Of a stretch of 43,263 nucleotides of DNA, positions 1 to 43,263 are shown in pieces (the first letter of the stretch is position 1; every line of letters starts with the position of its first letter). Under the pieces are notes generated by a model that had not been told where the DNA came from, made no database searches, and worked only from the letters and a program-made list of their open reading frames with translations. The DNA comes from a virus, in the IMG/VR virus record IMGVR_UViG_3300029351_000004, positions 1 through 43,263 of that record; one strand, 5' to 3'. A program made the translations under genes and the position numbers.

Positions 1-1490
1 TAGTTTGCCGCGGCCAGCTTTTGCAGCAGGTCCGCGCCGTATCGGTACGCCTCCAGGTAGTCCATGGTCTCCTCGGCCAGCCCGAAGCGCGCCTGTACCT
101 GGGCCCGGTAGCCCGGCGACTGCACCGGGGTCTGTCGCCATACCGCCGCCCGGAACATATCCATGGTCTTACTGTGGTAAGGCCACCAGTGCATCACGTC
201 CGCGTGGTTGGAGGCGATGCCCTTGGCATAGCCCTCCGAGTGGCACAGGATATCCGATTGGCTTAGGCCATAGGTCTTGCAAAGCTGGACGCACAGGGCC
301 ACGGCGCGGCTCCACACGGCCTCAAAATATGCGGCGGTATCCTGGGGGTTGTACGCCAGGTACGAGCCCTGGCGACTTGCCAGCTTGGCGAGGGTGGCCG
401 GTCCGCAGGACCCGTCCGCCGTGAGTCCCAGGTCCTTTTGGCAGGCCCTCAATGCCGCGTCGCAGCCGGGCCCGAAAGAGCCGTCCACCCCCTTAGGGTC
501 GTATCCTCTGGCCTGGAGCTCCATCTGGAGGCGCTGGACAGCCCAGCCAGAGGACCCCCGTTTGAGGGCAATCCACTCGGCGGGGATCAGGCGGCACTCC
601 TGGGGCTCACAAATCTCCATGCTCAGGTGGGTGTTGTTGGCCGCCCCGCCGCAGTGCCATGCCCGGCAGGTGTCCGGCAGGGTCTGGAGCGTGCGCTGGT
701 CGTCGATGGTGTAGTGGACCGCAGCCTCTGCGCCTGACCGGTCCCAGGCGGACCGGATGGTCTGGGCGTCCGCCCCCGGGGTGGCGGTTGAGTGTACCAT
801 GATCCCCTTGGGGGTGATGGTCCTCCCGGCCTTGTAGCAGTCGCTGTTGGTCATAACGGCCTGGGTGATGTCGTCCACAGGCTTGTCCTCCTTATCGCTG
901 TCGTCGGGCTTGGATGGGGCCCCCTTTTTTGTATAGACCAAGATGAGGTTGTGTACCTTCCGGTTGCTGACAATCCGCTTCCCCGCCAGATCGCACTGAG
1001 AGGAGCCGCCGCCGTCCAGCATGAGAGCGCTCTCCCACCCCAGGGCCAGTAGCTCGGCCTGGAGTTCCTCCGGAGTCCGCCCGCTGTTGGTGCAGTAGAG
1101 GCACAGCGCCCCATCCATAATCCCCATGGCTGTCCTGGGCCTGCTGCCCCCCACATCCCGGTTATAGATCAGTGTTTCGGCTTTTCCGCCCCGCAGCAAA
1201 CACACGCAGCAGATGTAACTCCGCCGTTCCGCCGCAGGGACAGAGCGCAGGGTGATGTCCGGCCCTGTGTCCCAGGCATAGCCCCAGTAGGTATACGGGT
1301 CCTTAGCATAGGTCCGCCCGTCCGCCCGGAGGTGGCATACCGCCTGGGCCCCCTGGTACAGTCCGCCGTTGATCAGATAGTCAGCCCCGGTCTCCGCCTT
1401 GATCTCGGCCAGGGTCTTGGCCGACTTGTTGACGTATATCTGGATGCGCTCGATGTCCCCCAGCGGGATGGAGGCGATGTACTTACTCAT
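1..1490 (-). CDS. Endolysin (496 aa): phosphodiester-glycosidase-like (NAGPA/DUF2233) N-domain plus Amidase_2 with an inserted PG_binding_1-like module. The stop codon lies across the circular junction (43164-43166).
   Basis: Absent from the ORF track because the window edge cuts the stop. The minus frame from ATG 1488-1490 (overlapping the upstream stop, ATGAGTAA) is open down to nt 3 and ends ...LAAAN-TAG in the terminal duplicate. Motifs read: SRPRTAMG...MLDGGGSS; GIMVHSTATPG...AWHCGG...SMEICEP; GVDGSFGPGCDAALRACQKDLGL; ILCHSEGYAKGIASNHADVMHWW. Confidence 0.85.
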   Translation of the reverse strand, partial: MSKYIASIPLGDIERIQIYVNKSAKTLAEIKAETGADYLINGGLYQGAQAVCHLRADGRTYAKDPYTYWGYAWDTGPDITLRSVPAAERRSYICCVCLLRGGKAETLIYNRDVGGSRPRTAMGIMDGALCLYCTNSGRTPEELQAELLALGWESALMLDGGGSSQCDLAGKRIVSNRKVHNLILVYTKKGAPSKPDDSDKEDKPVDDITQAVMTNSDCYKAGRTITPKGIMVHSTATPGADAQTIRSAWDRSGAEAAVHYTIDDQRTLQTLPDTCRAWHCGGAANNTHLSMEICEPQECRLIPAEWIALKRGSSGWAVQRLQMELQARGYDPKGVDGSFGPGCDAALRACQKDLGLTADGSCGPATLAKLASRQGSYLAYNPQDTAAYFEAVWSRAVALCVQLCKTYGLSQSDILCHSEGYAKGIASNHADVMHWWPYHSKTMDMFRAAVWRQTPVQSPGYRAQVQARFGLAEETMDYLEAYRYGADLLQKLAAAN

Positions 1491-26861: not shown

Positions 26862-26890
26862 TTGAAATAACTCTACTTTTGCTGTATAGT
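26862..26890 (+). promoter_or_regulatory. Sigma-70-type promoter (TTGAAA-17-TATAGT) for the rightward regulator and moron operon
   Basis: -35 at 26862-26867 and -10 at 26885-26890. Half-sites GTAGA (26849-26853) and TCTAC (26872-26876) are nearby. Confidence 0.7.
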
Positions 26891-26913
26891 CAGTTTCAGA
26901 GAGGTGTCGCACT

Positions 26914-27255
26914 ATGGAAATATCAGAAAAGATATACAGATTACGGACAGATAACGATTTGACACAAGCACAATTTGGGAAAATAGCTGGTGTATCCGAT
27001 AAGGCTGTTTCTACTTGGGAGCTCGGGATAAAAGAGCCCAGAATGAAACCATTGCAAAAAATATGCTCTTATTTTGATCTCGATATAAACTCATTTGTGG
27101 ACCCAAACGCTCATGTATACGAAAAAGGGCCCACCCCCGTCCCCGAGAGTGGACCCTTGTACCCGCCTGGGTATGATTTGCTTACGCCTGAGCAAAAGGA
27201 GATTGTTGACCGTCTGATCGCCGACCTTGCACGAAATCATCAATCAGGCGGATAA
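26914..27255 (+). CDS. XRE-family HTH regulator (113 aa), cI-like by position
   Basis: LRTDNDLTQAQFGKIAGVSDKAVSTWELG. It is divergent from the cro-like gene and heads the operon that runs toward the integrase. Confidence 0.75.
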   Translation: MEISEKIYRLRTDNDLTQAQFGKIAGVSDKAVSTWELGIKEPRMKPLQKICSYFDLDINSFVDPNAHVYEKGPTPVPESGPLYPPGYDLLTPEQKEIVDRLIADLARNHQSGG

Positions 27256-27442
27256 CCTGTTCGCGTTCACAATTGTCTAGCGATAAGTACATCGCAAGAG
27301 TGTCCGAATCCACCGCATCCCCCTTTCTCCGCAAGCCCGAACGAAATTCCTTGACTCCATAATAGTACGTTTGTTCTATTTGGTCAACCCGGAAAAGTTG
27401 CCAAATTTCAACGCAAATTTTCTGCCTTTTGACAAATTTCAC
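27182..27442 (-). CDS. Possible small protein (86 aa, GTG start, no clear RBS)
   Basis: Only the track ORF fills an otherwise empty 190-nt gap. Composition is protein-like. Its 3' end overlaps the cI-like gene by 74 nt. Confidence 0.3.
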   Translation of the reverse strand: MKFVKRQKICVEIWQLFRVDQIEQTYYYGVKEFRSGLRRKGDAVDSDTLAMYLSLDNCEREQVIRLIDDFVQGRRSDGQQSPFAQA

Positions 27443-27530
27443 ACACTTGCGGAATAGTCCGGATTATGGGACACGTGGAATGATATCGTTACCCAGCCGT
27501 CCGATGGTGGAGAAAGGAGAGAAAGACTGT

Positions 27531-27842
27531 ATGAGTTTGAAAAATCAGCGCAATATCGCCTTCGTCCTCTGTGCGGTGTTCTTTGCCTTGACCTTAATCT
27601 TTGCCTTCCGGTCCACACCTGTGGCATCCAAGCAGGCAGCCTCCCCCACAAGCACGGCCCGTGCGCAGGCGCAGCGTACAGACTAGGCGAAAAACTATGT
27701 CGCTAGCGTGAACAGCGGTAAATACCACCGTTTGACCTGCGACTATGCGGACAACATTCTGGAAGAAAACCGAGTTTACTATGCCACGGTGCAGGAGGCG
27801 GAAGCTGCCGGAAAACAGTCGTGCTCCGTATGTAGACCATGA
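27531..27842 (+). pseudogene. Membrane-anchored small protein with a C-terminal KYH...C...CxxC ('sunset'-like) module, interrupted by one in-frame TAG (27684-27686). Either a pseudogene or a readthrough/recoding candidate.
   Basis: ATG at 27531 follows AAAGGAGAG. Translation MSLKNQRNIAFVLCAVFFALTLIFAF...AQAQRTD-TAG-AKNYVASVNSGKYHRLTCDYADNILEENRVYYATVQEAEAAGKQSCSVCRP-TGA, all in one frame. Confidence 0.6.
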
Positions 27843-27878
27843 GGAGTGAGCATTAAGATGAAACCAAGGAGGTTGATG

Positions 27879-28184
27879 ATGAAAAAGGGGCTACTCTCTT
27901 TACGGATGTGGGTCGACACCCTAATCCTTGTTCTTCCCGTTGGATGGGTCTTAACCTGCTACGATGGCGGCTGGGCAGACTTCTGCTCCGGGGCATATCT
28001 GGCATTTATCTGGCACCTGTTATGCGCCTGTATCATTTCGACACTTTTGATTGGGTTTGGTATGCGTCTATCGGGTCAGACAATGACTGAAGACTCTGAG
28101 TTTCCTCGCCCCTGCTCACAGTGGGCAGCGATCGGGATAGAGATGTTGGTTTTATTGATTGCAACCTATAAACTACTCGGGTAG
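27879..28184 (+). CDS. Multi-pass membrane protein (about 101 aa), candidate superinfection-exclusion or moron protein
   Basis: Track ORF 27846..28184 trimmed to the ATG after AAGGAGG. It has three to four hydrophobic segments. Confidence 0.6.
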   Translation: MKKGLLSLRMWVDTLILVLPVGWVLTCYDGGWADFCSGAYLAFIWHLLCACIISTLLIGFGMRLSGQTMTEDSEFPRPCSQWAAIGIEMLVLLIATYKLLG

Positions 28185-28242
28185 AAAAAGCCACCCCTGC
28201 TGGTATACATACGGGAATCTGGCTACAGAGTTATACTTTTAA

Positions 28243-28274
28243 GATCGCCTCCCTACAGGGGCGTGGGTTGAAAT
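28243..28274 (+). CRISPR. Solitary type I-C-like CRISPR repeat unit (no array, no cas genes)
   Basis: GATCGCCTCCCTACAGGGGCGTGGGTTGAAAT has a 5' (A/G)TCGC, a GC stem with a TACA loop, and the 3' handle GCGTGGnTTGAAAT as in remembered I-C repeats (for example GTCGCACTCTACATGAGTGCGTGGATTGAAAT). I found only one copy on either strand. Confidence 0.6.
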
Positions 28275-28386
28275 AAATACCCCGCCGCTGGAGGGCGGTA
28301 ATATAAAAATCCCCGGCACGAGGCCTACATGACCCCGGAGACCCTGATCAAGCTGTGTACCACGCGGAAAGTGGTAAAAAATTACA

Positions 28387-28415
28387 TTGACAAAATTTTT
28401 CCCGGCGCATATAAT
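28387..28415 (+). promoter_or_regulatory. Consensus sigma-70 promoter (TTGACA-17-TATAAT)
   Basis: TTGACA at 28387-28392, a 17-nt spacer, and TATAAT at 28410-28415. It lies about 110 nt upstream of the NYN gene. Confidence 0.8.
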
Positions 28416-28532
28416 AGGGGCGTAGCAAGGCTACACTATATTTGCTGAACAGGCCCTTGGTAGTAAGCCCCCCACATATACGGGGTAGGCAGAATCCTTG
28501 GGCCTTATTATTTTGTTAGGACGTGAGAATAT

Positions 28533-29201
28533 ATGTCAAAGACAGCTATTCTGATTGATGGTGGGTTTTATAGAAAGCGCGCAAAACATTTATGGGGTGA
28601 AAAAACTGCCGAAGAACGCGCAAAAGAATTGGAAGCGTACTGCAAAGCTCATTTACATCGCAAGGACAGCGGTACGGAACGCCAGTTGTATAGAATATTT
28701 TATTACGACTGTTCACCTGTTGGGCGCCGAAGCGTGTACCACCCACTCACCAAGAAGAATGTTGATTTAGATAAATCGGATACATACACTTGGACTACAA
28801 TTTTCCTTGAAGAGTTGAAGCGCCGGCGGAAATTTGCACTTAGGCTTGGAGAATTATCAGAACAAATGCACTACAATCTGCGACCGGATGTCACAAGAAA
28901 ACTTTTGGCTGGGAAGATTAGCTTGGAAGACTTAACCGAAAACGACTTTGTATTTGTCGCCCAGCAAAAGGGTGTAGATATGCGAATCGGGATTGATATC
29001 GCTTCCATGACTTACAAGCAGCAGGTGAACCAAATTATTCTGGTCGCCGGGGACAGTGATTTTGTTCCCGCTGCTAAAATGGCCCGTCGCGAAGGAATCG
29101 ACTTTATTCTTGATCCGATGTGGGCCGACATACGGCCAAATCTGTTTGAACATATTGACGGACTTTACTCGATGTGGAAAAAGAAACCCGACGATAAATA
29201 A
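28533..29201 (+). CDS. NYN/LabA-like (PIN-like) domain protein, predicted ribonuclease (222 aa)
   Basis: KTAILIDGGFY...QKGVDMRIGIDI...IILVAGDSDFVPAAKMARREG follows the NYN/DUF88 acidic-residue pattern. Confidence 0.7.
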   Translation: MSKTAILIDGGFYRKRAKHLWGEKTAEERAKELEAYCKAHLHRKDSGTERQLYRIFYYDCSPVGRRSVYHPLTKKNVDLDKSDTYTWTTIFLEELKRRRKFALRLGELSEQMHYNLRPDVTRKLLAGKISLEDLTENDFVFVAQQKGVDMRIGIDIASMTYKQQVNQIILVAGDSDFVPAAKMARREGIDFILDPMWADIRPNLFEHIDGLYSMWKKKPDDK

Positions 29202-29300
29202 AATAACCGCTCCCGGTGCTGGCACACCAGGAGCGACGGGAAGGCGTAGACCACAGAGCGGCGGCTACCCTTCTATTATCGGAATAGGAGGATTTTGTCA

Positions 29301-30710
29301 ATGTCCACGTTCCCCGACGACGCGACGTGCAAGAGCATTCGTGCAGCGCTGTACGTCCGGGTCTCGACCGAAGAGCAGAAAGTACATGGCCTGTCCATTG
29401 AGTCCCAGACGGAGGCACTGGACGAGTGGGCGAAGACGCACAGCGTGAAGGTAGTCGGCCATTACAATGACGCCGGGATATCGGCCCGCAGGAGGTACAC
29501 AAAACGGCCTGAGCTGCTCCGGCTGCTAGAGGATGTAAAAGCGGGGAAAATCGACCTTATCGTCTTCACGAAACTGGACCGGTGGTTCCGCAATATCGCC
29601 GAGTATTACAAGGTGCAGGAAATTCTGGAGGCGAATCACGTCAACTGGAAGACCATACATGAGGACTATGATACCTCCACCGCGTCAGGTCGGCTAAAGA
29701 TCAACATCATGCTCTCTGTGGCGCAGGACGAGGCAGACCGGACGAGCGAGCGCATTAAGGCCGTGTTCGACGCGAAGAAGAAAAACGGGGAACCTGTGAC
29801 GGGCCACGTCCCAACCGGCTACCTCCTGGATGGCAAAAAGATCGTTTTTGACCCCGAATGGCAGGAAGCGGTAACCGCCTTCTTCTCCGAATATCTTGCC
29901 AGCGGCAGTCCGTCGCAGGCCAGAAAGGCGGCGCTAGCCCGCTCCGGCAAGGTCATATCGTACCAACTCGCTACCCTCATGCTGAAGAACCAGGCGTACA
30001 GCGGCAGTTTTCACGGCGTTCCCGGAATGTGCCCACAATATATTTCTGAGGCGCAGTTCGCCCGCGTCCAGCAGCTTAGACAGTCGAATCCAAAGGCCGC
30101 GCCAACAGGGCGGACCTACCTTTTCAGCGGGCTTATCTTCTGCGGAGAGTGCGGCCGCAGGCTGTCCGGTGCCTGCCGGAAAGTCTCCAGAAACGACGGA
30201 AGCATATACGAGTTCAAATATTACATCTGTCAAAACCACTACGTTCGAAGCGGGTGCCCGAATAATTCCTGTACCAGAGAGCGTTACATTGAGGAAGAGC
30301 TCCTCAAGCTGCTCCCGGCAGAGGTAGACCAAGCAATCGTTGATACGTCCGGCGCCCGTCTCTTATCGAAGCAGGGGAACGCAGACCTTTCTAAAATGAA
30401 GCGCAGGATGGCACGTCTCCAGGAGCTGTACCTAAATGAACTGATTGATTTGGCGGCGTACAGCAAAGAATACAACGAGATAAAAGGCCGCATGCAGGCC
30501 GCTGAGGCGGCTAAGGCAGCAGAATCCAGAGAGGCGGATCTCCGAATGCTTTCAGGTCTGGACTGGGCAGCGCTGTACAGTACTATGAACGGTCACGAAC
30601 AGAGGGAGCTATGGCGTTCTCTTTTGAGCAAGGTCTTTGTCAGCAAGGACAAGGCCATATCGGTTGAATTGAATCCAGATATAGGTGGTGCTCTAATTCA
30701 TGTTAAGTAA
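29301..30710 (+). CDS. int: Large serine recombinase (integrase)
   Basis: AALYVRVSTEEQ (catalytic Ser region), GISARR, LIVFTKLDRWFRN, GRLKINIMLSVAQDEADRTSERIK, a zinc-ribbon CGECGRRL...YYICQNH...C, and a C-terminal coiled coil. ATG follows AGGAGG. Confidence 0.92.
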   Translation: MSTFPDDATCKSIRAALYVRVSTEEQKVHGLSIESQTEALDEWAKTHSVKVVGHYNDAGISARRRYTKRPELLRLLEDVKAGKIDLIVFTKLDRWFRNIAEYYKVQEILEANHVNWKTIHEDYDTSTASGRLKINIMLSVAQDEADRTSERIKAVFDAKKKNGEPVTGHVPTGYLLDGKKIVFDPEWQEAVTAFFSEYLASGSPSQARKAALARSGKVISYQLATLMLKNQAYSGSFHGVPGMCPQYISEAQFARVQQLRQSNPKAAPTGRTYLFSGLIFCGECGRRLSGACRKVSRNDGSIYEFKYYICQNHYVRSGCPNNSCTRERYIEEELLKLLPAEVDQAIVDTSGARLLSKQGNADLSKMKRRMARLQELYLNELIDLAAYSKEYNEIKGRMQAAEAAKAAESREADLRMLSGLDWAALYSTMNGHEQRELWRSLLSKVFVSKDKAISVELNPDIGGALIHVK

Positions 30711-30772
30711 TCGATGTAATCCGGACGGATCACATTATTTACTTAACAAAGCCGCCTGATTTATTCCATGAG

Positions 30773-30800
30773 AAAGCCCCCCAAGGTGGCGGGGGCTTTT
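30773..30800. terminator. Bidirectional terminator between the integrase gene and the convergent XRE gene
   Basis: AAAGCCCCC-CAAGGTGG-CGGGGGCTTTT, with A/T runs on both sides. Confidence 0.7.
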
Positions 30801-31399: not shown

Positions 31400-34300
31400 T
31401 CAGCTCTTCCTCAGCTTTCGTAGTTTCTCTTCTACCAGTGCTTTATTGTACTGGATGATCGTTTTTCCTACCTCAAAATCAGTAAACATGGCCTGTCTCT
31501 GTTTATCCGTCAGTCCCTGGATGGAATATACGGCCTCCATAACGAGCAGTCCTCTGCTGTTCGTAATGGTCTCCCCGTTCTGATCTTTCAGCGATTGGAT
31601 GTCTCGCTGCACCTCATAAGCGTAGAGGTAAGTTTCAATCGGGACTCCGGTTCGTTTGGTGGTGCTGATTGCCCTTTTGATCCATCCATCGGGCTGATAT
31701 TCGGACACATTTGTTTTTCCTATGGCATTAGCATAGTCGTATGCATCCTGTATCAGTCTTACCTTGTCCCCATCGCTCAGGCCTGTATACCATCTTGCGT
31801 TTGTAATCTTACACAGTATCTGATAGGATGTCTGCCCCTTTGCCGTGGCGTATGTCACATATTCCTCCGCCGTCAGCTCCCTGCGCTTACCGTTTACTGT
31901 GAAATATTTGTCGGCACGGGCGGGGAATACGCCACTATCTCCTGTGGCCTCGTAGAGTCTCAGCAGTTCCTCCTCCATTTGGCTCGTCTCAATCTGAGCG
32001 GTATAGGCCGGATTTAAAAAGTTGTCCACCGCCCGTTTGCCCGCACTGCCTGTATCCTCGGTACGCCCCCATGCGTCAATGTAGGGGATCTGCTGATAAT
32101 CCCAGCCGGGCAGCCTCCCGCTGATCCGCCCCAAGGTATACTGGGCGTCCCGGGTCAAAAACGCATTCTTTTCCGTGTAGGTAGTCATCCGCTCCTCCTG
32201 TCCGGTCCGCTCGAATTGACCGAGGAGCGTGGGGACTCCCTGTGTCAGATAGCTTGTGGCAGCGCTGGCCAAGGCGGAAAAGAGGCCGTCCATTCCCTCG
32301 GAGGTGGCGTACCCCACCGCGTCAAACACGTCGTTCAGGCTCTGGAGACAGGACATCTCCAGCAATGGCTCCGTTACATTACCGGTTGCTTTCAAAATGG
32401 CGGACAGGGTAATGGGTTCCCTCTCCCCCTGTGTCTGTTCCCAAAGGTTTACGCCCACGAAGAAGGGCAGCGCTTCCGGTGCCAGCCAGTCCAGCGTCAC
32501 GCTGGTGCCGTCCGGAAGCTCCAGCGCATAGGTCTGATGCCCCTGTAATTCCTCAAACTTTTTCTTCTCTTCGTCTTCACCGCCGGCCCCCCGCACAAGT
32601 GCCTGAGCCGCGCAGTACATCCCAAAAGCGAGCAGCCCCGTACCGGTCATTCCAGCAGAGATGCGGTCGATGGCCTCGGCGCCGCTCAGCTCGCCCTGCT
32701 TCACCTGGTGCAGGTCATAGGTCAGGCCCTTCAAAAGTCCGGCGGGACTGTACTCCAGTCCCCGGGCCAATATGTTGGCCGGCGTCTTGCGGAAGGGCAG
32801 TATTCCTTCCATGGCAGTGCTCACGCCTTTTCCCACCGCGTTTTTCCCACTATAGCGCCCCAGATCGCTGATGGTCTGCGACAGGGCATTGGTGTCCCGG
32901 TAGGTGGCCTTTTGGGCCTCTTTGATCGCATAGGCCCTGGCCTTGTCCATCCCCTTCCCTGTGGCGATCTGCTCCGCCGTGATGTGGTTGGCCTTGCAGT
33001 ACTGGGCCAGCGCATAGGCGTAGTGGGGGTGTGAGAACCAGGCATCCTCCGCATCCAGAGCCCTGCTGTTGGCTCTCCTGACCGCCTCCAGGGACTTGCT
33101 CTTAAAGATGCGCCGCCCCTCCTCGATGTACTGGTTGGCGTTGGCAAAGTCGCTGTATTTGCCTGCCCCCAGGGCGGCCTCCTTCACGTTGGCGTAGTCG
33201 CCCCATGCGGCCGCAAGCAGGTCCCGGTCCGCCCTGCCCAATCCCACCGCCCCTTTTGTCCGGTTCAGTCTCCCGCCGGATACCCGTTCTACCGCAACCT
33301 CAATGGCTGTTGCAGTCATATCCTTGGCTGCGACCACCGGAGCAAAGAAGGCGTTGCCTACAATATTTCTTACGTGTGTCCTGGGGTTTGCCAGCATGGC
33401 CAGATACCGCCAGGCGTTCCACTTGTCCACAAATCGGGAGGGCATCTGTCTGCCGATATCCCGGAACAGCTCCCGGGCAGCCTCGTCCCGCGCTTTCTGG
33501 TCCTCCGCCAGGAGCATCGCCTGTGCAAGATCCGGGTCGATCTTCAGGTCCGGGGCGTCCTTACCATACTCTTTCTTCAGCTCCTCCTGGAGGTTTTGCA
33601 CGCTCCGCTGGACGCCGTAAAGCTGGCCCTCCGGGGACATCTTTTTGAGAATGCGGGTGGCCTGCACCGCCTGGGCGGCGTTTCGTTGATGTCCCACCAT
33701 TTTTGTGAGCACCGTCATAGCTGACTGAATGTCTCCGGCATTGGCCGCCGCGTTGTACAGAGCCCAGCCCATGGCCGTGTTCGCCTTGGACACCTCGCCT
33801 TTCCCCACTGCATCCGACCAGTCCGCCAAGGCGGTGGCGTATCCCTTGTCCTGGATTGCGCTCTCCGCCTCCGCGATGGCCCTTTTATCTGAGTGGACCT
33901 CATAGGAAAATTCTCCTCGAGCGACCAATTCCTTGATGCTGGGAACCGTTTCCTCTGGAGTGGCTTTTGCCTCCAGTACAGTCCGTGCAGTCAGGGAGAC
34001 CTTTTGGTCCTTTTCTGTCATTTGTGGCACCTGAATGTGGCGTGCCGGCCGCTCTCCCTGTTTTATCTCACCGTATTCTCCAATCATCCCCCGGTATGTC
34101 TCATCCACGATCTGTGCAATTTCCTCTTTGACCTGTGCATCGCTCATTCCCTCACGTTCTGCACGGTCGGAGAGTGCCTGCACCGCCGCGTACATCTCTC
34201 GTGAGCCCATCAGGGAGTGACGGATATCCGGGTCTGTGGTATCAAAGGTCCCGGCGTTATCCTCCGCAGCTTTAATCTGCTCCGGCTCAAACACGACAAA

Positions 34301-37300
34301 TACATCGGACATTTCCCGGAACTTTTTGCTTCCAAAGGTGTCATACACATTTTTGAACACCACGCCGTCCTTTCCGGTTTGGGCCGCTTCCTGAATGATT
34401 CTCGTATATCTTTCCGAATTGCCCTGATAGGCATCCCCCTTAAAGTCCACAACAACAGGATTTTTCATGGATAAGAATACCTTCATCAAAACACCGGAAA
34501 TTCCGCTGGCCCGGTAGTTCTTTACTGCTTTTTCATATTTCTCCCTCACCTTCTTAAACAGATCGTCAGCCTCCGGAACCACTCCCAGTAGTTCTTCCAT
34601 GCGGTCAAACTCATCTCTCAGTTTCAATATTTCATAGGGAAAGGTATTCTCGGCATATCCACTCGCTACCTTTGCGCTGCTGGAGAAAAAGAATCCCATC
34701 CGCGCATCTTCTGTCTTTGTAAAGGCTCCTCGTTTTTTCTTGTCAAAGATATGTATCTCTTCCGCCGTCCCGTGGTATACAGCTCTGGGGCTTCCATCTT
34801 CCTGGTAGAGCTCGGGGGTGTTGCCATCATAAAATCGCTTGAAGTAAGGGCTCTGTGTCCCCATCTCTCTCCACAGTTGTGCCGCCTCGGCCCGCTCCTC
34901 AGCTGTGAATGCTCCTGCATGTTCCGCCCCTTCTACGGAGTACTCCTCCCCGTCCAAGGCCATCAGAGAATATTTGGTGTTGCTATTTTGGCCGCTGGAG
35001 GGTGTACTGGAAGTAGGACCGTAGGTGGTTGGAGAGAACGGCAATCGGAGCGTATTATCGCGCAGCCACTGATCGGTTCTTTTTTTAACATCCTGACCGG
35101 TCCGGACCAGTGCCGCCTCCAGTGCCTGGGCCATACTGTCCAGGTTTTTCTCCAGATCACGAAGGCCCGCTCTTTCCTCTTGCGTCAGGGGAGGCTGTTC
35201 TCTGCCCCTCTGATGATCCAGTGCGGCGCGCACCTTCTCCAGCAGCTCATGCACCGCGTCCATCAGCCTCTCTGCCGCCGTACGGTGCTCCATGACGAAC
35301 TGCTCCAGCATGGCGCTGTCACCCAGAACTTGCCCAAAGGCATCCGCAACCAGTTCTTCGGTCAGATAGTCTATGTTTTGCGTATCATGTAGCTTGCCCA
35401 ATGCCCCCAGAGCGATGTCTGCAGTTTGCGCGTTCAAGTTTTTCTGCACAAACTGCGCCAGTTCCGAATAGCTCTCCGGTGATACCTCTCGCATCCGATG
35501 GATAATTTCGTGGGTAAATGCTGTGCGCACCGGGTCCTGGGCATCCAGGGCAATGGTGATCCGCCCTCCATTTGGACCGGATTCGTATTTAGCGTTGGCA
35601 CGCGCGCCGGTTTGGGTGTCCACAATCTCCTCTGCAAACCGCACCTCTACCCCCGCAGTCTTTCCCATTGTATCCAGCACCCGAGCGGTTTTTGCGCTCA
35701 TATTTGCTTGGCGGTATCTTTGATCTCTCACCAATCCTGCCTTTCTCCCAAAGTATTTCGCCTGCTGGGCCCGGAGCGCATCGTTTTTCCCCGCAGCTTC
35801 AGCCGCCAGAGTCAGATGTGCTGGGAGCGTTTCCTCCCGTGTGGACTTCTTCCCGTCCAGCGCTCTGTTATAGATCCTGGCGAAGCCCGCAAACGCATCC
35901 TGCAGGCTTATTCTTTCCGCAGTCTCTGCGTCGTAGGCCGCCAAAAAAGCCCGGGAACCGCTTTCTCCCAGAGTAGCGGCGGCCCGCTGCACCAGCCTGT
36001 CGGGATAGATTTGCTGTTTTTCCCCGAATACCGCCGGTCCCGCCTGGACAGACTGGGTATTGCCACCAGCGGAGGAATCTGCTATAATGGGGGTAGAAGA
36101 TGGTGCAGTATCCGTGCTATGTACGCTGGTCGCGTGACGGCCAGCCGTGGATGCTGCGCCATCGTTCTTTTTTATGACCTCTATCGCCTCTGGGGTGAAA
36201 TGGTACAGGCGGTTCCCGCCTCCTGCCTTTTGGTCCTCCACGCGGACACGCATATCAACCAGATACGGGCTTCCGTCAATATATACCGTAGTCATAAGGT
36301 GGTCGTATCCCGCGATTTGCGCCCGCCCGCGCCGGTCGCCTTCGCTGCTGAAATACACGCCATTTTGAGCAATACGCTCCAGTTGTCCCAAAACCGCAAT
36401 GCTCTCCAGTGGGACCACCCGGTCAGAATAGCTGCCGGCAGACAGCATCTTTTTCAACGAGGGTTTTGTGATTTTAATCACATAAGCATCCCCGTTTCTG
36501 GTTACGTTGCTGGCTTCGATGTATGCCGCCGGATTCTTGTCAAGTCCGAGGCGCGCTTCCGTTTGTTCCAGCGCAGTCTTTCGGATATAGTTTCCGGCCT
36601 TGGGCATGGTTCCGCCGTTCATATCCGCCACTGTCTGCATAGACAGATTAATGATGGGCACGGTGGGCAGCTCTACATTTTCGGGTCTCGCCGCCCGATA
36701 CGTTCCCGTCTCCCCCGTGGAGGCGGTTTTTTGCGTCTGTTGAGCCGCAGGGGCATACAAAGCCGTGGTCTGCGAGTTTGCCGCCTCTGGGGCCTCCTGC
36801 GCGGGCCGGGCCGGATTCGCGGCGAGGTCCCTTCCGGCGGTCACGTTGTACACCCCGCCGGGTACATTCAGCATACCGAATGTCAGCAGTGAGGCGAGTC
36901 CTGTATCCTTCAGCCGGTCAGCCACCTCTCCCGCGCCATATTGCCACTCCCCCGTTTCCATCCTGCTGGCGGCTTGGGCTCCGGCGATGGTCACGCCCTC
37001 CTGCGCCATTTCCTGAAGCGTCTCGTTTCCTACGTCCGTGCCGCGCTCTATCAGCTCCCGTGCAATCCTGCGCGCCAGCCCCTGCGTGGCAGTGTTCCCT
37101 TTGAGGACTTGGAAGGATTTTACCAGCTCGTCCGCCTGCACATATTCCAACATGGCGTTGCCCACACCCACCGCCGTGGCGACCTTGGATGCGGTGTCCG
37201 GAGATATCCCGTTCTCGATCATCTCATTGTAGGCAAATCCCGCCTCGATTTCATAGTTTGAAACGGCGCTGCCCGCTTGCAGCCCCATCATTGCCGCCCC

Positions 37301-38137
37301 CGGGACCGTGACAAGCTCCTCCGGGGCCAATGCCTGCGGCCCTGCCTGGCCCGCTGCCGCAGCCATGCCCGCATACCCCGTCGCCAGCGCGACAGAGCGT
37401 GGATCCGTCCACTGGCGGAGCTGCTGTCCGAGTTGTCCTGCCGCCCCGGACACGGCCTCCTCCAGCCAGCCGTCCGGCAAGAAACGATACTCCTCGCCCG
37501 CCAGCTTCTCCGCGTATTTCCGGGCCTCATTCTCTTTGCCCGTCATCGCTTTATAGCTCTCCTGGCCATATACAGAGTTATAGTATCCCTGAGAAAAGCT
37601 GCCCAACGTCAGGTCCTTCAGGGACGCATCCCGATATCCGGCGTTCAGCAGAGCCTGCCGTTCGGATTCCTCCGCCGCCTTTTGCTCCTCCCTGAGCGGA
37701 TCCATCTGCTGATAAAGCGCGACAAGCTCCGTATTGAGCCTGCCCAGCTCTTCCCGGCTCCGCCCGGCTTTCCCCTTCTGTGTGAGCTCGCCGATCCTGC
37801 GGTTGAGATCATCCGCACGGCCCTGTAGAGTCCCCATATCATACTGGATATCTGCCGCGCTTCTGGCTGTAGCGGTGCTTTCCCTCTCATCTCCCTGCAC
37901 CGCACGCACCGGGCGCTCCTCCTGCGTGAGCCCCAGCCTCCTGGTCGCCGCAGTGCTGCGCCTTCTCGCAAAATAGGAATCGGTAAAGGCGTCCGTACCC
38001 GCTCCGACTGCCGCCATTTTGGCCGGCGCGGCGCTTTGTGTCTGGCTCAATTTCGCCTTAGGCGCACTTTTGTTCTGGGCGTCGTTCTCCTTTTTTCTGC
38101 GTGAGAGATAGGCCGCGGTAAAGTTGTCAGAAGCCAA
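31400..38137 (-). CDS. Giant multi-domain ('polyvalent'-type) virion/ejection protein (2245 aa) with an HExxH metallopeptidase-like motif and an ADP-ribosyltransferase-like module
   Basis: Uninterrupted 6.7-kb ORF. HEIIH is encoded at 35498-35512. VYHGT...GFFFSSS...VVFEPEQ lies at about 34253-34855. A possible nuclease/toxin-like module covers residues ~488-655. The C-terminal ~850 aa are helical. Confidence 0.8.
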   Translation of the reverse strand: MASDNFTAAYLSRRKKENDAQNKSAPKAKLSQTQSAAPAKMAAVGAGTDAFTDSYFARRRSTAATRRLGLTQEERPVRAVQGDERESTATARSAADIQYDMGTLQGRADDLNRRIGELTQKGKAGRSREELGRLNTELVALYQQMDPLREEQKAAEESERQALLNAGYRDASLKDLTLGSFSQGYYNSVYGQESYKAMTGKENEARKYAEKLAGEEYRFLPDGWLEEAVSGAAGQLGQQLRQWTDPRSVALATGYAGMAAAAGQAGPQALAPEELVTVPGAAMMGLQAGSAVSNYEIEAGFAYNEMIENGISPDTASKVATAVGVGNAMLEYVQADELVKSFQVLKGNTATQGLARRIARELIERGTDVGNETLQEMAQEGVTIAGAQAASRMETGEWQYGAGEVADRLKDTGLASLLTFGMLNVPGGVYNVTAGRDLAANPARPAQEAPEAANSQTTALYAPAAQQTQKTASTGETGTYRAARPENVELPTVPIINLSMQTVADMNGGTMPKAGNYIRKTALEQTEARLGLDKNPAAYIEASNVTRNGDAYVIKITKPSLKKMLSAGSYSDRVVPLESIAVLGQLERIAQNGVYFSSEGDRRGRAQIAGYDHLMTTVYIDGSPYLVDMRVRVEDQKAGGGNRLYHFTPEAIEVIKKNDGAASTAGRHATSVHSTDTAPSSTPIIADSSAGGNTQSVQAGPAVFGEKQQIYPDRLVQRAAATLGESGSRAFLAAYDAETAERISLQDAFAGFARIYNRALDGKKSTREETLPAHLTLAAEAAGKNDALRAQQAKYFGRKAGLVRDQRYRQANMSAKTARVLDTMGKTAGVEVRFAEEIVDTQTGARANAKYESGPNGGRITIALDAQDPVRTAFTHEIIHRMREVSPESYSELAQFVQKNLNAQTADIALGALGKLHDTQNIDYLTEELVADAFGQVLGDSAMLEQFVMEHRTAAERLMDAVHELLEKVRAALDHQRGREQPPLTQEERAGLRDLEKNLDSMAQALEAALVRTGQDVKKRTDQWLRDNTLRLPFSPTTYGPTSSTPSSGQNSNTKYSLMALDGEEYSVEGAEHAGAFTAEERAEAAQLWREMGTQSPYFKRFYDGNTPELYQEDGSPRAVYHGTAEEIHIFDKKKRGAFTKTEDARMGFFFSSSAKVASGYAENTFPYEILKLRDEFDRMEELLGVVPEADDLFKKVREKYEKAVKNYRASGISGVLMKVFLSMKNPVVVDFKGDAYQGNSERYTRIIQEAAQTGKDGVVFKNVYDTFGSKKFREMSDVFVVFEPEQIKAAEDNAGTFDTTDPDIRHSLMGSREMYAAVQALSDRAEREGMSDAQVKEEIAQIVDETYRGMIGEYGEIKQGERPARHIQVPQMTEKDQKVSLTARTVLEAKATPEETVPSIKELVARGEFSYEVHSDKRAIAEAESAIQDKGYATALADWSDAVGKGEVSKANTAMGWALYNAAANAGDIQSAMTVLTKMVGHQRNAAQAVQATRILKKMSPEGQLYGVQRSVQNLQEELKKEYGKDAPDLKIDPDLAQAMLLAEDQKARDEAARELFRDIGRQMPSRFVDKWNAWRYLAMLANPRTHVRNIVGNAFFAPVVAAKDMTATAIEVAVERVSGGRLNRTKGAVGLGRADRDLLAAAWGDYANVKEAALGAGKYSDFANANQYIEEGRRIFKSKSLEAVRRANSRALDAEDAWFSHPHYAYALAQYCKANHITAEQIATGKGMDKARAYAIKEAQKATYRDTNALSQTISDLGRYSGKNAVGKGVSTAMEGILPFRKTPANILARGLEYSPAGLLKGLTYDLHQVKQGELSGAEAIDRISAGMTGTGLLAFGMYCAAQALVRGAGGEDEEKKKFEELQGHQTYALELPDGTSVTLDWLAPEALPFFVGVNLWEQTQGEREPITLSAILKATGNVTEPLLEMSCLQSLNDVFDAVGYATSEGMDGLFSALASAATSYLTQGVPTLLGQFERTGQEERMTTYTEKNAFLTRDAQYTLGRISGRLPGWDYQQIPYIDAWGRTEDTGSAGKRAVDNFLNPAYTAQIETSQMEEELLRLYEATGDSGVFPARADKYFTVNGKRRELTAEEYVTYATAKGQTSYQILCKITNARWYTGLSDGDKVRLIQDAYDYANAIGKTNVSEYQPDGWIKRAISTTKRTGVPIETYLYAYEVQRDIQSLKDQNGETITNSRGLLVMEAVYSIQGLTDKQRQAMFTDFEVGKTIIQYNKALVEEKLRKLRKS

Positions 38138-43164: not shown

Positions 43165-43263
43165 TAGTTTGCCGCGGCCAGCTTTTGCAGCAGGTCCGCG
43201 CCGTATCGGTACGCCTCCAGGTAGTCCATGGTCTCCTCGGCCAGCCCGAAGCGCGCCTGTACC
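43165..43263. repeat. Exact 99-nt duplicate of positions 1-99 (circular-closure overlap)
   Basis: Base-by-base identity read directly (tagtttgccgcggccagc...gcgcgcctgtacc). It carries the 3' end of the endolysin CDS. Confidence 0.97.

Follow-up and report, generated by a model that had tools for sequence, protein, structure and literature searches.

Solitary repeat units and RNA anti-CRISPRs

Solitary repeat units (SRUs) are single CRISPR repeats that are intergenic, lie on a virus or plasmid, and have neither a complete nor a partial second repeat (>70% identity) within 100 bp (PMC10651486). Under the SRUfinder cut-offs, BLAST alignment with a known repeat must reach 90% coverage and 41.1 bits (PMC10651486). 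SRUs and RNA anti-CRISPRs (Racrs) frequently adjoin acr genes, a feature that is supportive and not defining (PMC10651486). A Racr is expected to be transcribed, to be bound or processed by its cognate Cas ribonuclease, and to inhibit interference, in a host whose CRISPR-Cas system is of the same subtype (PMC10651486). RacrIC1, for example, is located 11 nt downstream of acrIC5, is co-transcribed with it in a bicistronic RNA, and inhibits type I-C (Camara-Wilpert et al., Nature 2023, PMC10651486). The element described here is a 32-nt repeat unit, GATCGCCTCCCTACAGGGGCGTGGGTTGAAAT, at 28243-28274 on the plus strand of IMG/VR virus record IMGVR_UViG_3300029351_000004, which was analyzed over its whole length of 43,263 nucleotides (the window).

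With a probability of roughly one half, the unit is a degenerate SRU from a type I-C repeat and acts as a Racr-type decoy, carried by the lysogeny (repressor) operon in its 3' untranslated tail. A sequence-only reading of this DNA had already proposed a candidate RNA anti-CRISPR. That idea holds for the I-C-derived solitary unit, its orientation with the lysogeny operon, and the existence of related SRUs in phages; it overlooked the degeneracy of the unit and the long hairpin predicted to mask it. The unit had also been presented as a good test case for type I-C. Because RacrIC1 is already published (PMC10651486), it is a new instance and not a new test case.

Type I-C origin and solitary state of the unit

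The unit is an exact single copy: with up to three mismatches allowed, the 32-mer occurs once in the window, both strands included, as the sequence-only reading had claimed. It is intergenic, with 28195-28328 free of overlapping open reading frames (ORFs) of at least 40 aa. The 348-nt gap that holds it separates the gene for a 101-aa membrane-like protein (27879-28184) from a NYN gene (28533-29201).

A type I-C covariance model was trained on 39 distinct repeats, all from genuine multi-copy I-C arrays, and the window was run with filters off. The model matches 28244-28274 with 27.7 bits (E 4.6e-4) and all of its positions 1-33 are covered, a score to be read knowing that most training repeats were fetched by a pattern containing CCTCCC, itself taken from the unit. 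The runner-up in the 43-kb window reaches 12.8 bits, and a chance match is ruled out by this comparison. As the sole significant I-C match in the window, the unit bears out the type I-C derivation suggested earlier. Intact solitary units score higher under the same model, e.g., 54.1 bits for L223 and 48.7 bits for L248, and the two mini-array repeats of L215 score 44.8 and 37.8 bits. Judged by these scores, the unit is I-C-derived yet degenerate because its 27.7 bits are significant and fall below the intact units. In Rfam, neither a CRISPR-DR family nor any other matches the unit, even at E up to 10.

No second repeat is found by the model near the unit, and there is no degenerate same-strand copy within 160 nt, where scores of the flanks do not exceed those of shuffled sequence. 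The unit is not part of a tandem array with 33-37-nt spacers, and a search of the window for cas genes found none. The lack of a second repeat nearby and of cas genes had been stated from the sequence, and both statements stand. A decayed mini-array, offered earlier as one alternative, is unsupported, as neither local alignment nor the covariance model gives a second repeat. The unit is therefore solitary and intergenic, and it is carried by a temperate phage whose genome is complete and circular and which occurs in integrated form as well, in keeping with how SRUs are defined.

Handle, hairpin and Cas5c recognition

The 3' overhang of the unit is the 11-nt TGGGTTGAAAT (28264-28274, plus strand), which would become the CRISPR RNA (crRNA) 5' handle and the region for Cas5c recognition, with U-G-G beside the cut site. 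It follows the I-C overhang rule, UGGAUUGAAA(U/C) after a stem-base GCG (PMC8524198), and differs from the common A-handle at one position (10/11). With the GCG before it, the overhang forms the 14-nt handle GCGTGGGTTGAAAT, which is identical (14/14) to native array repeats of L211/L212, L122, and L220. Among gut Oscillospiraceae, this handle dominates in L211/L212, whose cas3-cas5c-cas8c-cas7-cas4-cas1-cas2 loci are complete; it is dominant as well in L122, an array of Ca. Egerieimonas, and in L220. The handle was originally counted as 13/14 with GGGTTGAAAT as the one mismatch. It is not a mismatch, because the native arrays of L211/L212, L122, and L220 carry the same handle, and the count becomes 14/14.

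The variant handle marks a gut Clostridia I-C lineage (L211 13056-15600, L212, L122, and L220) that has GGGTTGAAAT in place of the textbook GGATTGAAAT. Handles of the A and G types are mixed inside single arrays, at 32:3 in L211 and 9:5 in L122. Either handle is found among loci whose Cas7c proteins share one 90% cluster.

The repeat hairpin spans 28246-28263 on the plus strand. CGCCTC (28246-28251) pairs with GGGGCG (28258-28263) around the loop CCTACA, giving a 6-bp stem that includes one G-U pair and a 6-nt loop; the four stem-base pairs are Watson-Crick. The 5' end is ATCGC, compared with GTCGC in canonical I-C repeats. The unit thus departs from the canonical form, which is 32-33 nt long, starts with GTCGC, and has a 5' overhang of 2 nt, a stem of 7 bp, and a loop of 4-5 nt. 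The hallmarks listed by the sequence-only reading accordingly survive in part: the TCGC 5' end, the imperfect GC stem, and the handle are present, while the loop is the 6-nt CCTACA and not the TACA proposed, and the stem region is 2 nt short.

Cas5c reads the cut site at the stem base, the downstream U-G-G, and the 3' overhang, and tolerates changes in the loop and the 5' overhang (PMC8524198). In the unit, the four Watson-Crick stem-base pairs, the UGG, and the 3' overhang are preserved; the upper stem, the loop, and the 5' end are degenerate. As read from the sequence, this pattern of preservation and decay coincides with the parts that Cas5c is reported to read and to tolerate (PMC8524198).

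Related units in phages and host arrays

The unit is identical in 20 near-clonal relatives, which show 0-6 differences across 2,400 positions. A more distant copy is found in L226, a 98.7%-identical relative that retains the unit though it has KilA-N and a tyrosine integrase in place of the NYN gene and serine integrase. The swapped module covers 3093-5395 of L226 and corresponds to 28295-30785 of the window; its left breakpoint, at about 28294, is inside an inverted partial copy located downstream of the unit. L226 carries two substitutions in the unit, A28257G and T28274C, and both are toward the I-C consensus, raising the model score from 27.7 to 31.3 bits. A28257G also lengthens the stem, with a hairpin energy of -12.2 kcal/mol.

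Units that differ from this one occur at comparable positions in other phages. NYN homologues with 58-82% identity define a set of 80 phage loci (442 kb), and an I-C-like unit is present in L036 only. This unit, GTCTCTCCCTACACGAGGAGGGTGGATTGAAAC, scores 30.6 bits, is itself degenerate, and differs from the window unit, with which it has the core CTCCCTACA in common. It is located immediately 3' of the stop codon of a helix-turn-helix (HTH) S24 repressor and upstream of the NYN promoter, the same slot that the window unit occupies. L248 (IMGVR_UViG_3300029775_000009) has the solitary unit GTCGCTCCCTACACGGGAGCGTGGATTGAAAT, identical to the window unit at 28/32 positions, between a Rha regulator and a CI-like repressor. 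The L248 unit is among the catalogued I-C SRUs, where its match to a known repeat has 100% identity and 63.9 bits, and I-C SRUs with a G-handle are catalogued as well (Camara-Wilpert et al. 2023 supplement, PMC10651486). Related solitary I-C units with the CTCCCTACA core adjoin lysogeny regulators in three other phage lineages. Other copies of the window unit itself were found neither in IMG/VR nor in INPHARED, and JGI metagenomes gave L226 only. The comparison with other phages proposed from the sequence thus gives the L226 variant and the related units of L036 and L248, and no copy of the unit itself in IMG/VR or INPHARED.

Figures on host repeats refer to the genome matches listed (at least 120) and to the sampled arrays. 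The closest sequence among the matches listed is repeat 2 of the two-repeat mini-array of L187, from a metagenome-assembled genome of a rabbit-gut Clostridia member, at 28/31. This I-C mini-array is found at 512-608 on the minus strand of L187. Its divergent repeats both start with ATCGC and flank a 35-nt spacer; a promoter-like site accompanies them, and the mini-array adjoins tRNA genes. The array repeats of Neglectibacter (L177), Oscillibacter (L095), and Egerieimonas (L122) agree with the unit at 27-28/33, also among the matches listed. A search for near-identical repeats in Oscillospiraceae I-C arrays had been proposed from the sequence, and the matches listed for the host family include repeats identical at 27-28/33 with an identical handle.

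The lysogeny operon and its surroundings

The unit lies downstream of, and in the same orientation as, the rightward lysogeny operon (26862-28184, plus strand), which is the likely source of transcripts with the unit in their 3' tail. A promoter scan places the promoter-like site of the operon at 26862-26890 (plus strand). The operon is composed of an HTH repressor-like gene (26914-27255) and a gene for an Ada-Zn-like small protein (27531-27842), both on the plus strand and named from Pfam/PHROG matches, followed by the gene for the 101-aa membrane-like protein (27879-28184, plus strand), which is supported by gene calls including those in relatives. No strong plus-strand terminators are found between 26914 and 28243. 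The shared orientation had been noted from the sequence, and the position of the unit on the plus strand after the 101-aa gene agrees with it.

The repeat-bearing intergenic segment is bounded on the right by the sigma-70 promoter of the NYN gene, TTGACA-17-TATAAT, at 28387-28415 (plus strand), which matches at 12/12 positions. NYN loci without a repeat conserve both this promoter and its leader, and have only an AT-rich spacer at the position of the unit.

The NYN leader (28416-28532, core 28448-28509) is a conserved structured RNA that ends in a hairpin and a U-run. It matches Rfam RF03535 (TEG147, cis-regulatory) with 28.1 bits in the window and with 36-41 bits at the same position in L011, L033, L039, and L047, all below the gathering score of 56.1. 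Upstream of phrog_5783 NYN genes, the leader is a candidate for an attenuator or a riboswitch-like element. A 39-aa ORF at 28329-28448 (plus strand), with a GAGG motif resembling a ribosome-binding site (RBS), is annotated by gene callers in all relatives and spans the NYN promoter. It is probably spurious because it crosses that promoter and is absent from L226 and L036. Also adjoining the lysogeny module is a gene at 31400-38137 (minus strand) for a 2,245-aa "polyvalent" protein with LPD3 and ART-PolyVal domains.

The phage and its host

The ends of the window (1-99 and 43165-43263) are identical over 99 nt, and the window is therefore a complete circular genome, a contig of about 43,164 bp. 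Genes for a P22-like portal, a capsid protein, the large terminase, DNA polymerase A, a serine integrase, and HTH regulators are present. The phage is recovered from many human-gut assemblies, both free and integrated. The identity of free and integrated copies ends about 17 nt beyond the stop codon of the integrase gene, which puts the phage attachment site (attP) at about 30725-30730. Integration is upstream of a host acyltransferase/MBOAT/ALGX/MFS cluster (Acyl_transf_3), and L008 and L239 show a second integration site. The host MBOAT protein belongs to a 90% cluster named Intestinimonas butyriciproducens. From its gene content and junctions, the window is identified as a complete temperate P22-like phage of I. 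butyriciproducens, and the temperate phage of a GC-rich Clostridia host posited from the sequence now has a host name through the junction MBOAT protein.

Within Oscillospiraceae, type I-C systems are very common; they occur in Flavonifractor, Pseudoflavonifractor, Lawsonibacter, Dysosmobacter, and Oscillibacter, among others.

In some relatives, L001 (1779-3416) and L004 (2031-3668), a GIY-YIG endonuclease gene interrupts recT and leaves ORFs of 189 and 108 aa. This arrangement suggests the insertion of a homing endonuclease or an intron.

The 72-nt palindrome and the inverted copy

Starting 5 nt 3' of the unit is an inverted partial copy of it, ACCCCGCCGCTGGAGGGCGG, at 28279-28299 (plus strand), which contains a small hairpin at 28282-28298. 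Its reverse complement matches the core of the unit at 17/21 positions, a value equalled by 1/500 shuffles. The unit and this copy form an imperfect palindrome of 72 nt, 28237-28308 (plus strand), with the loop TGAAATAAAT. It is predicted to fold as a long RNA hairpin in which the unit and part of the handle pair with the downstream copy, at -32.6 kcal/mol (z -4.27), and 0/200 shuffles fold as well. L226 largely keeps the palindrome (-30.6 kcal/mol, z -2.7). The anti-repeat arm is absent from the other solitary units, L036, L223, L224, and L248.

The sequence-only reading had described a GC hairpin followed by an A/T stretch downstream of the unit. The hairpin exists and is also a partial inverted copy of the unit (17/21), but it does not provide a plus-strand terminator. 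Because the tail is A-rich, a plus-strand terminator after the unit is not supported; the small hairpins are terminator-like on the minus strand only.

The minus strand has two tandem terminator-like hairpins with U-tracts, 28298-28282 and 28323-28311. Upstream of both is a minus-strand promoter-like site at 28539-28510 (10/12). Taken together, these sites hint at an antisense RNA that may span both the promoter and the leader of the NYN gene.

The predicted masking hairpin is a peculiarity of the locus, and it may limit the access of Cas5c or be a separate structural element. A highly speculative model makes it a "caged" repeat mimic, in which the 72-nt hairpin with its built-in anti-repeat would mask the Cas5c site and co-transcriptional binding by Cas5c would switch either decoy activity or read-through into the NYN and integrase genes. 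The prophage immunity operon would then contain a riboregulator that responds to a Cas protein and is tuned to the G-handle gut I-C lineage; little probability is given to this.

Proposed activity and alternative explanations

As a Racr-type decoy, with the mechanism described by Camara-Wilpert et al. 2023 (PMC10651486), the unit would be transcribed in lysogens along with the repressor operon. Host Cas5c would recognize the intact hairpin base, the U-G-G beside the cut site, and the 11-nt handle. It would bind, and perhaps cleave, the RNA, and Cas5c, possibly with Cas7, would be titrated onto an RNA without a spacer. The functional Cascade pool would fall, shielding the prophage from self-targeting and its progeny from interference and primed adaptation.

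This activity is favored by the I-C identity of the unit, the preservation of the parts that Cas5c reads, the related units of L248, L036, and L226, the precedent of RacrIC1, and the frequency of I-C systems in the host family. Several observations weigh against it. At 27.7 bits, compared with 45-54 bits for intact units, the unit is clearly degenerate. BLAST of the unit against the 39 distinct array repeats gives at best 30.2 bits, with 19/32 nt aligned, below the SRUfinder cut-offs, although a closer repeat may exist outside those 39. The spacing from TCGC to GCGTGG is 12 nt, 2 nt short of the canonical 14-15 nt. In isolation the unit folds at -9.0 kcal/mol (z -0.34), no stabler than shuffled sequence, compared with -16.7 kcal/mol (z -3.3) for a canonical I-C repeat; in context it is predicted to be sequestered in the -32.6 kcal/mol hairpin, which pairs the first handle bases. 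No promoter is detected immediately upstream of the unit, and there is no plus-strand terminator to delimit a small RNA. No acr homologue was found among the neighboring small proteins in general Pfam and PHROG searches, which did not include a dedicated Acr library. On the host side, no I-C system is assigned to I. butyriciproducens itself among the inspected Cas7c/Cas8c matches and cluster members, no literature on such a system in this species was found, and no sampled array has a spacer targeting this phage. The identity of the unit among relatives carries little weight because the population is near-clonal around it.

Much of the same evidence is what a neutral relic would leave, and the scar from a host array named as an alternative in the sequence-only reading is a live rival. 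A fragment would have been captured at a module junction through illegitimate recombination and would be decaying without function; it would come from a host I-C array (e.g., as a degenerate terminal repeat) or from a phage SRU or mini-array of ancestral origin. This is a possible explanation, though clearly a less probable one than the decoy. The low model score, the two deletions, a stem no stabler than shuffled sequence, and the lack of the unit's own promoter or terminator all suit it, as does the location of the unit exactly at the junction of module exchange. In a near-clonal lineage, persistence requires no selection. Degenerate array-end repeats missing the same "AG" exist, e.g., GTCGCTTTCCGCGAGGGGCGTGGATTGAAAT in L211, and solitary I-C-like matches are common in genomes. 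The decay is nevertheless uneven, since the handle and stem base are perfect and it is the tolerated positions that vary. Both L226 substitutions move toward the consensus, and related units recur beside lysogeny regulators in L036 and L248. Between the L036 and window units, moreover, the stems have changed on both sides at two pairs (G-C vs. U-G and C-G vs. U-A). These features count against a relic.

The functional element might instead be the palindrome at 28237-28308, with the repeat merely one GC-rich arm of a cis-acting structure: a stabilizer or processing site for RNA at the 3' end of the operon, a barrier separating the operon from the NYN promoter, or a minus-strand terminator. The very stable hairpin does reach into flanks that are not repeat, and it is kept in L226, where the replaced arm is the purine-rich RBS of the next gene; the terminator-like and promoter-like sites of the minus strand also fit. 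Such a structure leaves unexplained a full-length I-C repeat whose exact 11-nt handle is mostly in the loop. There is no U-tract for plus-strand termination, and the related units of L036, L223, L224, and L248 have no inverted copy. This explanation is unlikely. Still less probable is a crRNA-like regulatory RNA (Cracr, or crlRNA), in which the Cas5c cut would leave the 11-nt handle on the downstream ~35 nt and the product, partially complementary to a host cas or toxin promoter, would direct Cascade to silence it. Viral I-C Cracrs have been reported (bioRxiv 10.1101/2024.10.29.618823), and an intact handle followed by non-coding sequence is what one would contain. Against this, no second pseudo-repeat occurs at the spacing of I-C arrays, the pseudo-spacer is a hairpin as well, and a gene start truncates it in L226. 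Compared with the I-C loci L211, L212, L095, and L177, the pseudo-spacer matches no better than shuffled sequence and has no seed match flanked by a protospacer adjacent motif; no protospacer occurs in IMG/VR or INPHARED. A guide of the Cracr type is rejected on these grounds, i.e., the missing second repeat and the lack of a pseudo-spacer target in the four loci and both databases.

The least credible explanation, to which almost no weight is given, is a DNA-level homology patch or attachment site for integration into, or recombination with, host arrays. A passage of PMC10651486 cites precedent for prophage integration into CRISPR repeats, and the unit is ~1 kb upstream of the integrase gene. 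The integrase, however, is a large serine recombinase, which acts independently of homology, and none of 20 loci has a phage-array junction at the unit. The host junctions are by the acyltransferase/MBOAT genes or at the second site, outside arrays. The unit is not the attachment site because attP adjoins the integrase (about 30725-30730), ~2.45 kb away, and the comparison of free and integrated copies refutes the attachment-site form of the homology patch that had been listed as an alternative.

Significance

If active, the unit would be a natural I-C Racr from a prophage of an abundant human-gut butyrate producer. Strongly degenerate repeat mimics below the published SRU-finder thresholds would then be able to work, and current catalogues would undercount them. 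The stem base and handle would be the minimal determinants for Cas5c capture, and RNA anti-CRISPRs would be tied to constitutive expression from a lysogeny operon, which fits self-protection by a prophage. If inactive, the unit is an ordinary relic. The SRU/Racr concept is already published, and the gain is incremental: the element is a degenerate addition to a described class, and its interpretation is plausible and partly supported.

Comparison with known systems

The unit shares with RacrIC1 and other SRUs a single repeat mimic of type I-C, with no cas genes and no spacer, in an intergenic position on a prophage. As in RacrIC1, it is found just 3' of a protein gene, with which it is probably co-transcribed. 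Unlike the tested Racrs, it is much more degenerate and falls under the SRUfinder score and coverage cut-offs against the sampled repeats. It also differs from RacrIC1 in belonging to a repressor/membrane-protein operon, where RacrIC1 accompanies an acr gene, and in being predicted to be masked by an inverted copy.

The closest catalogued counterpart is the L248 SRU. Both have the CTCCCTACA core, agree at 28/32 positions, are solitary, and are located in the lysogeny-control region of a human-gut phage beside a CI-like repressor. The L248 unit is a perfect copy of an array repeat with an A-handle and a 7-bp stem, whereas the window unit has one inserted C, two deleted bases, a G-handle, and A as its first base.

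Compared with the native I-C repeats of gut Clostridia (L211/L212, L122, L177, and L095), the unit has the same TCGC 5' end, GC hairpin, and GCGTGG(G/A)TTGAAAT handle. It is distinguished by being outside an array, by a stem region 2 nt shorter, by the G-U pair and 6-nt loop, and by a first base of A and not G. Mini-arrays and Cracrs, e.g., the two-repeat mini-arrays L187 and L215, are likewise composed of degenerate I-C-like repeats on mobile elements, and repeat 2 of L187 also starts with ATCGC. They possess a spacer and, ~35 nt away, a second repeat, neither of which the window unit has.

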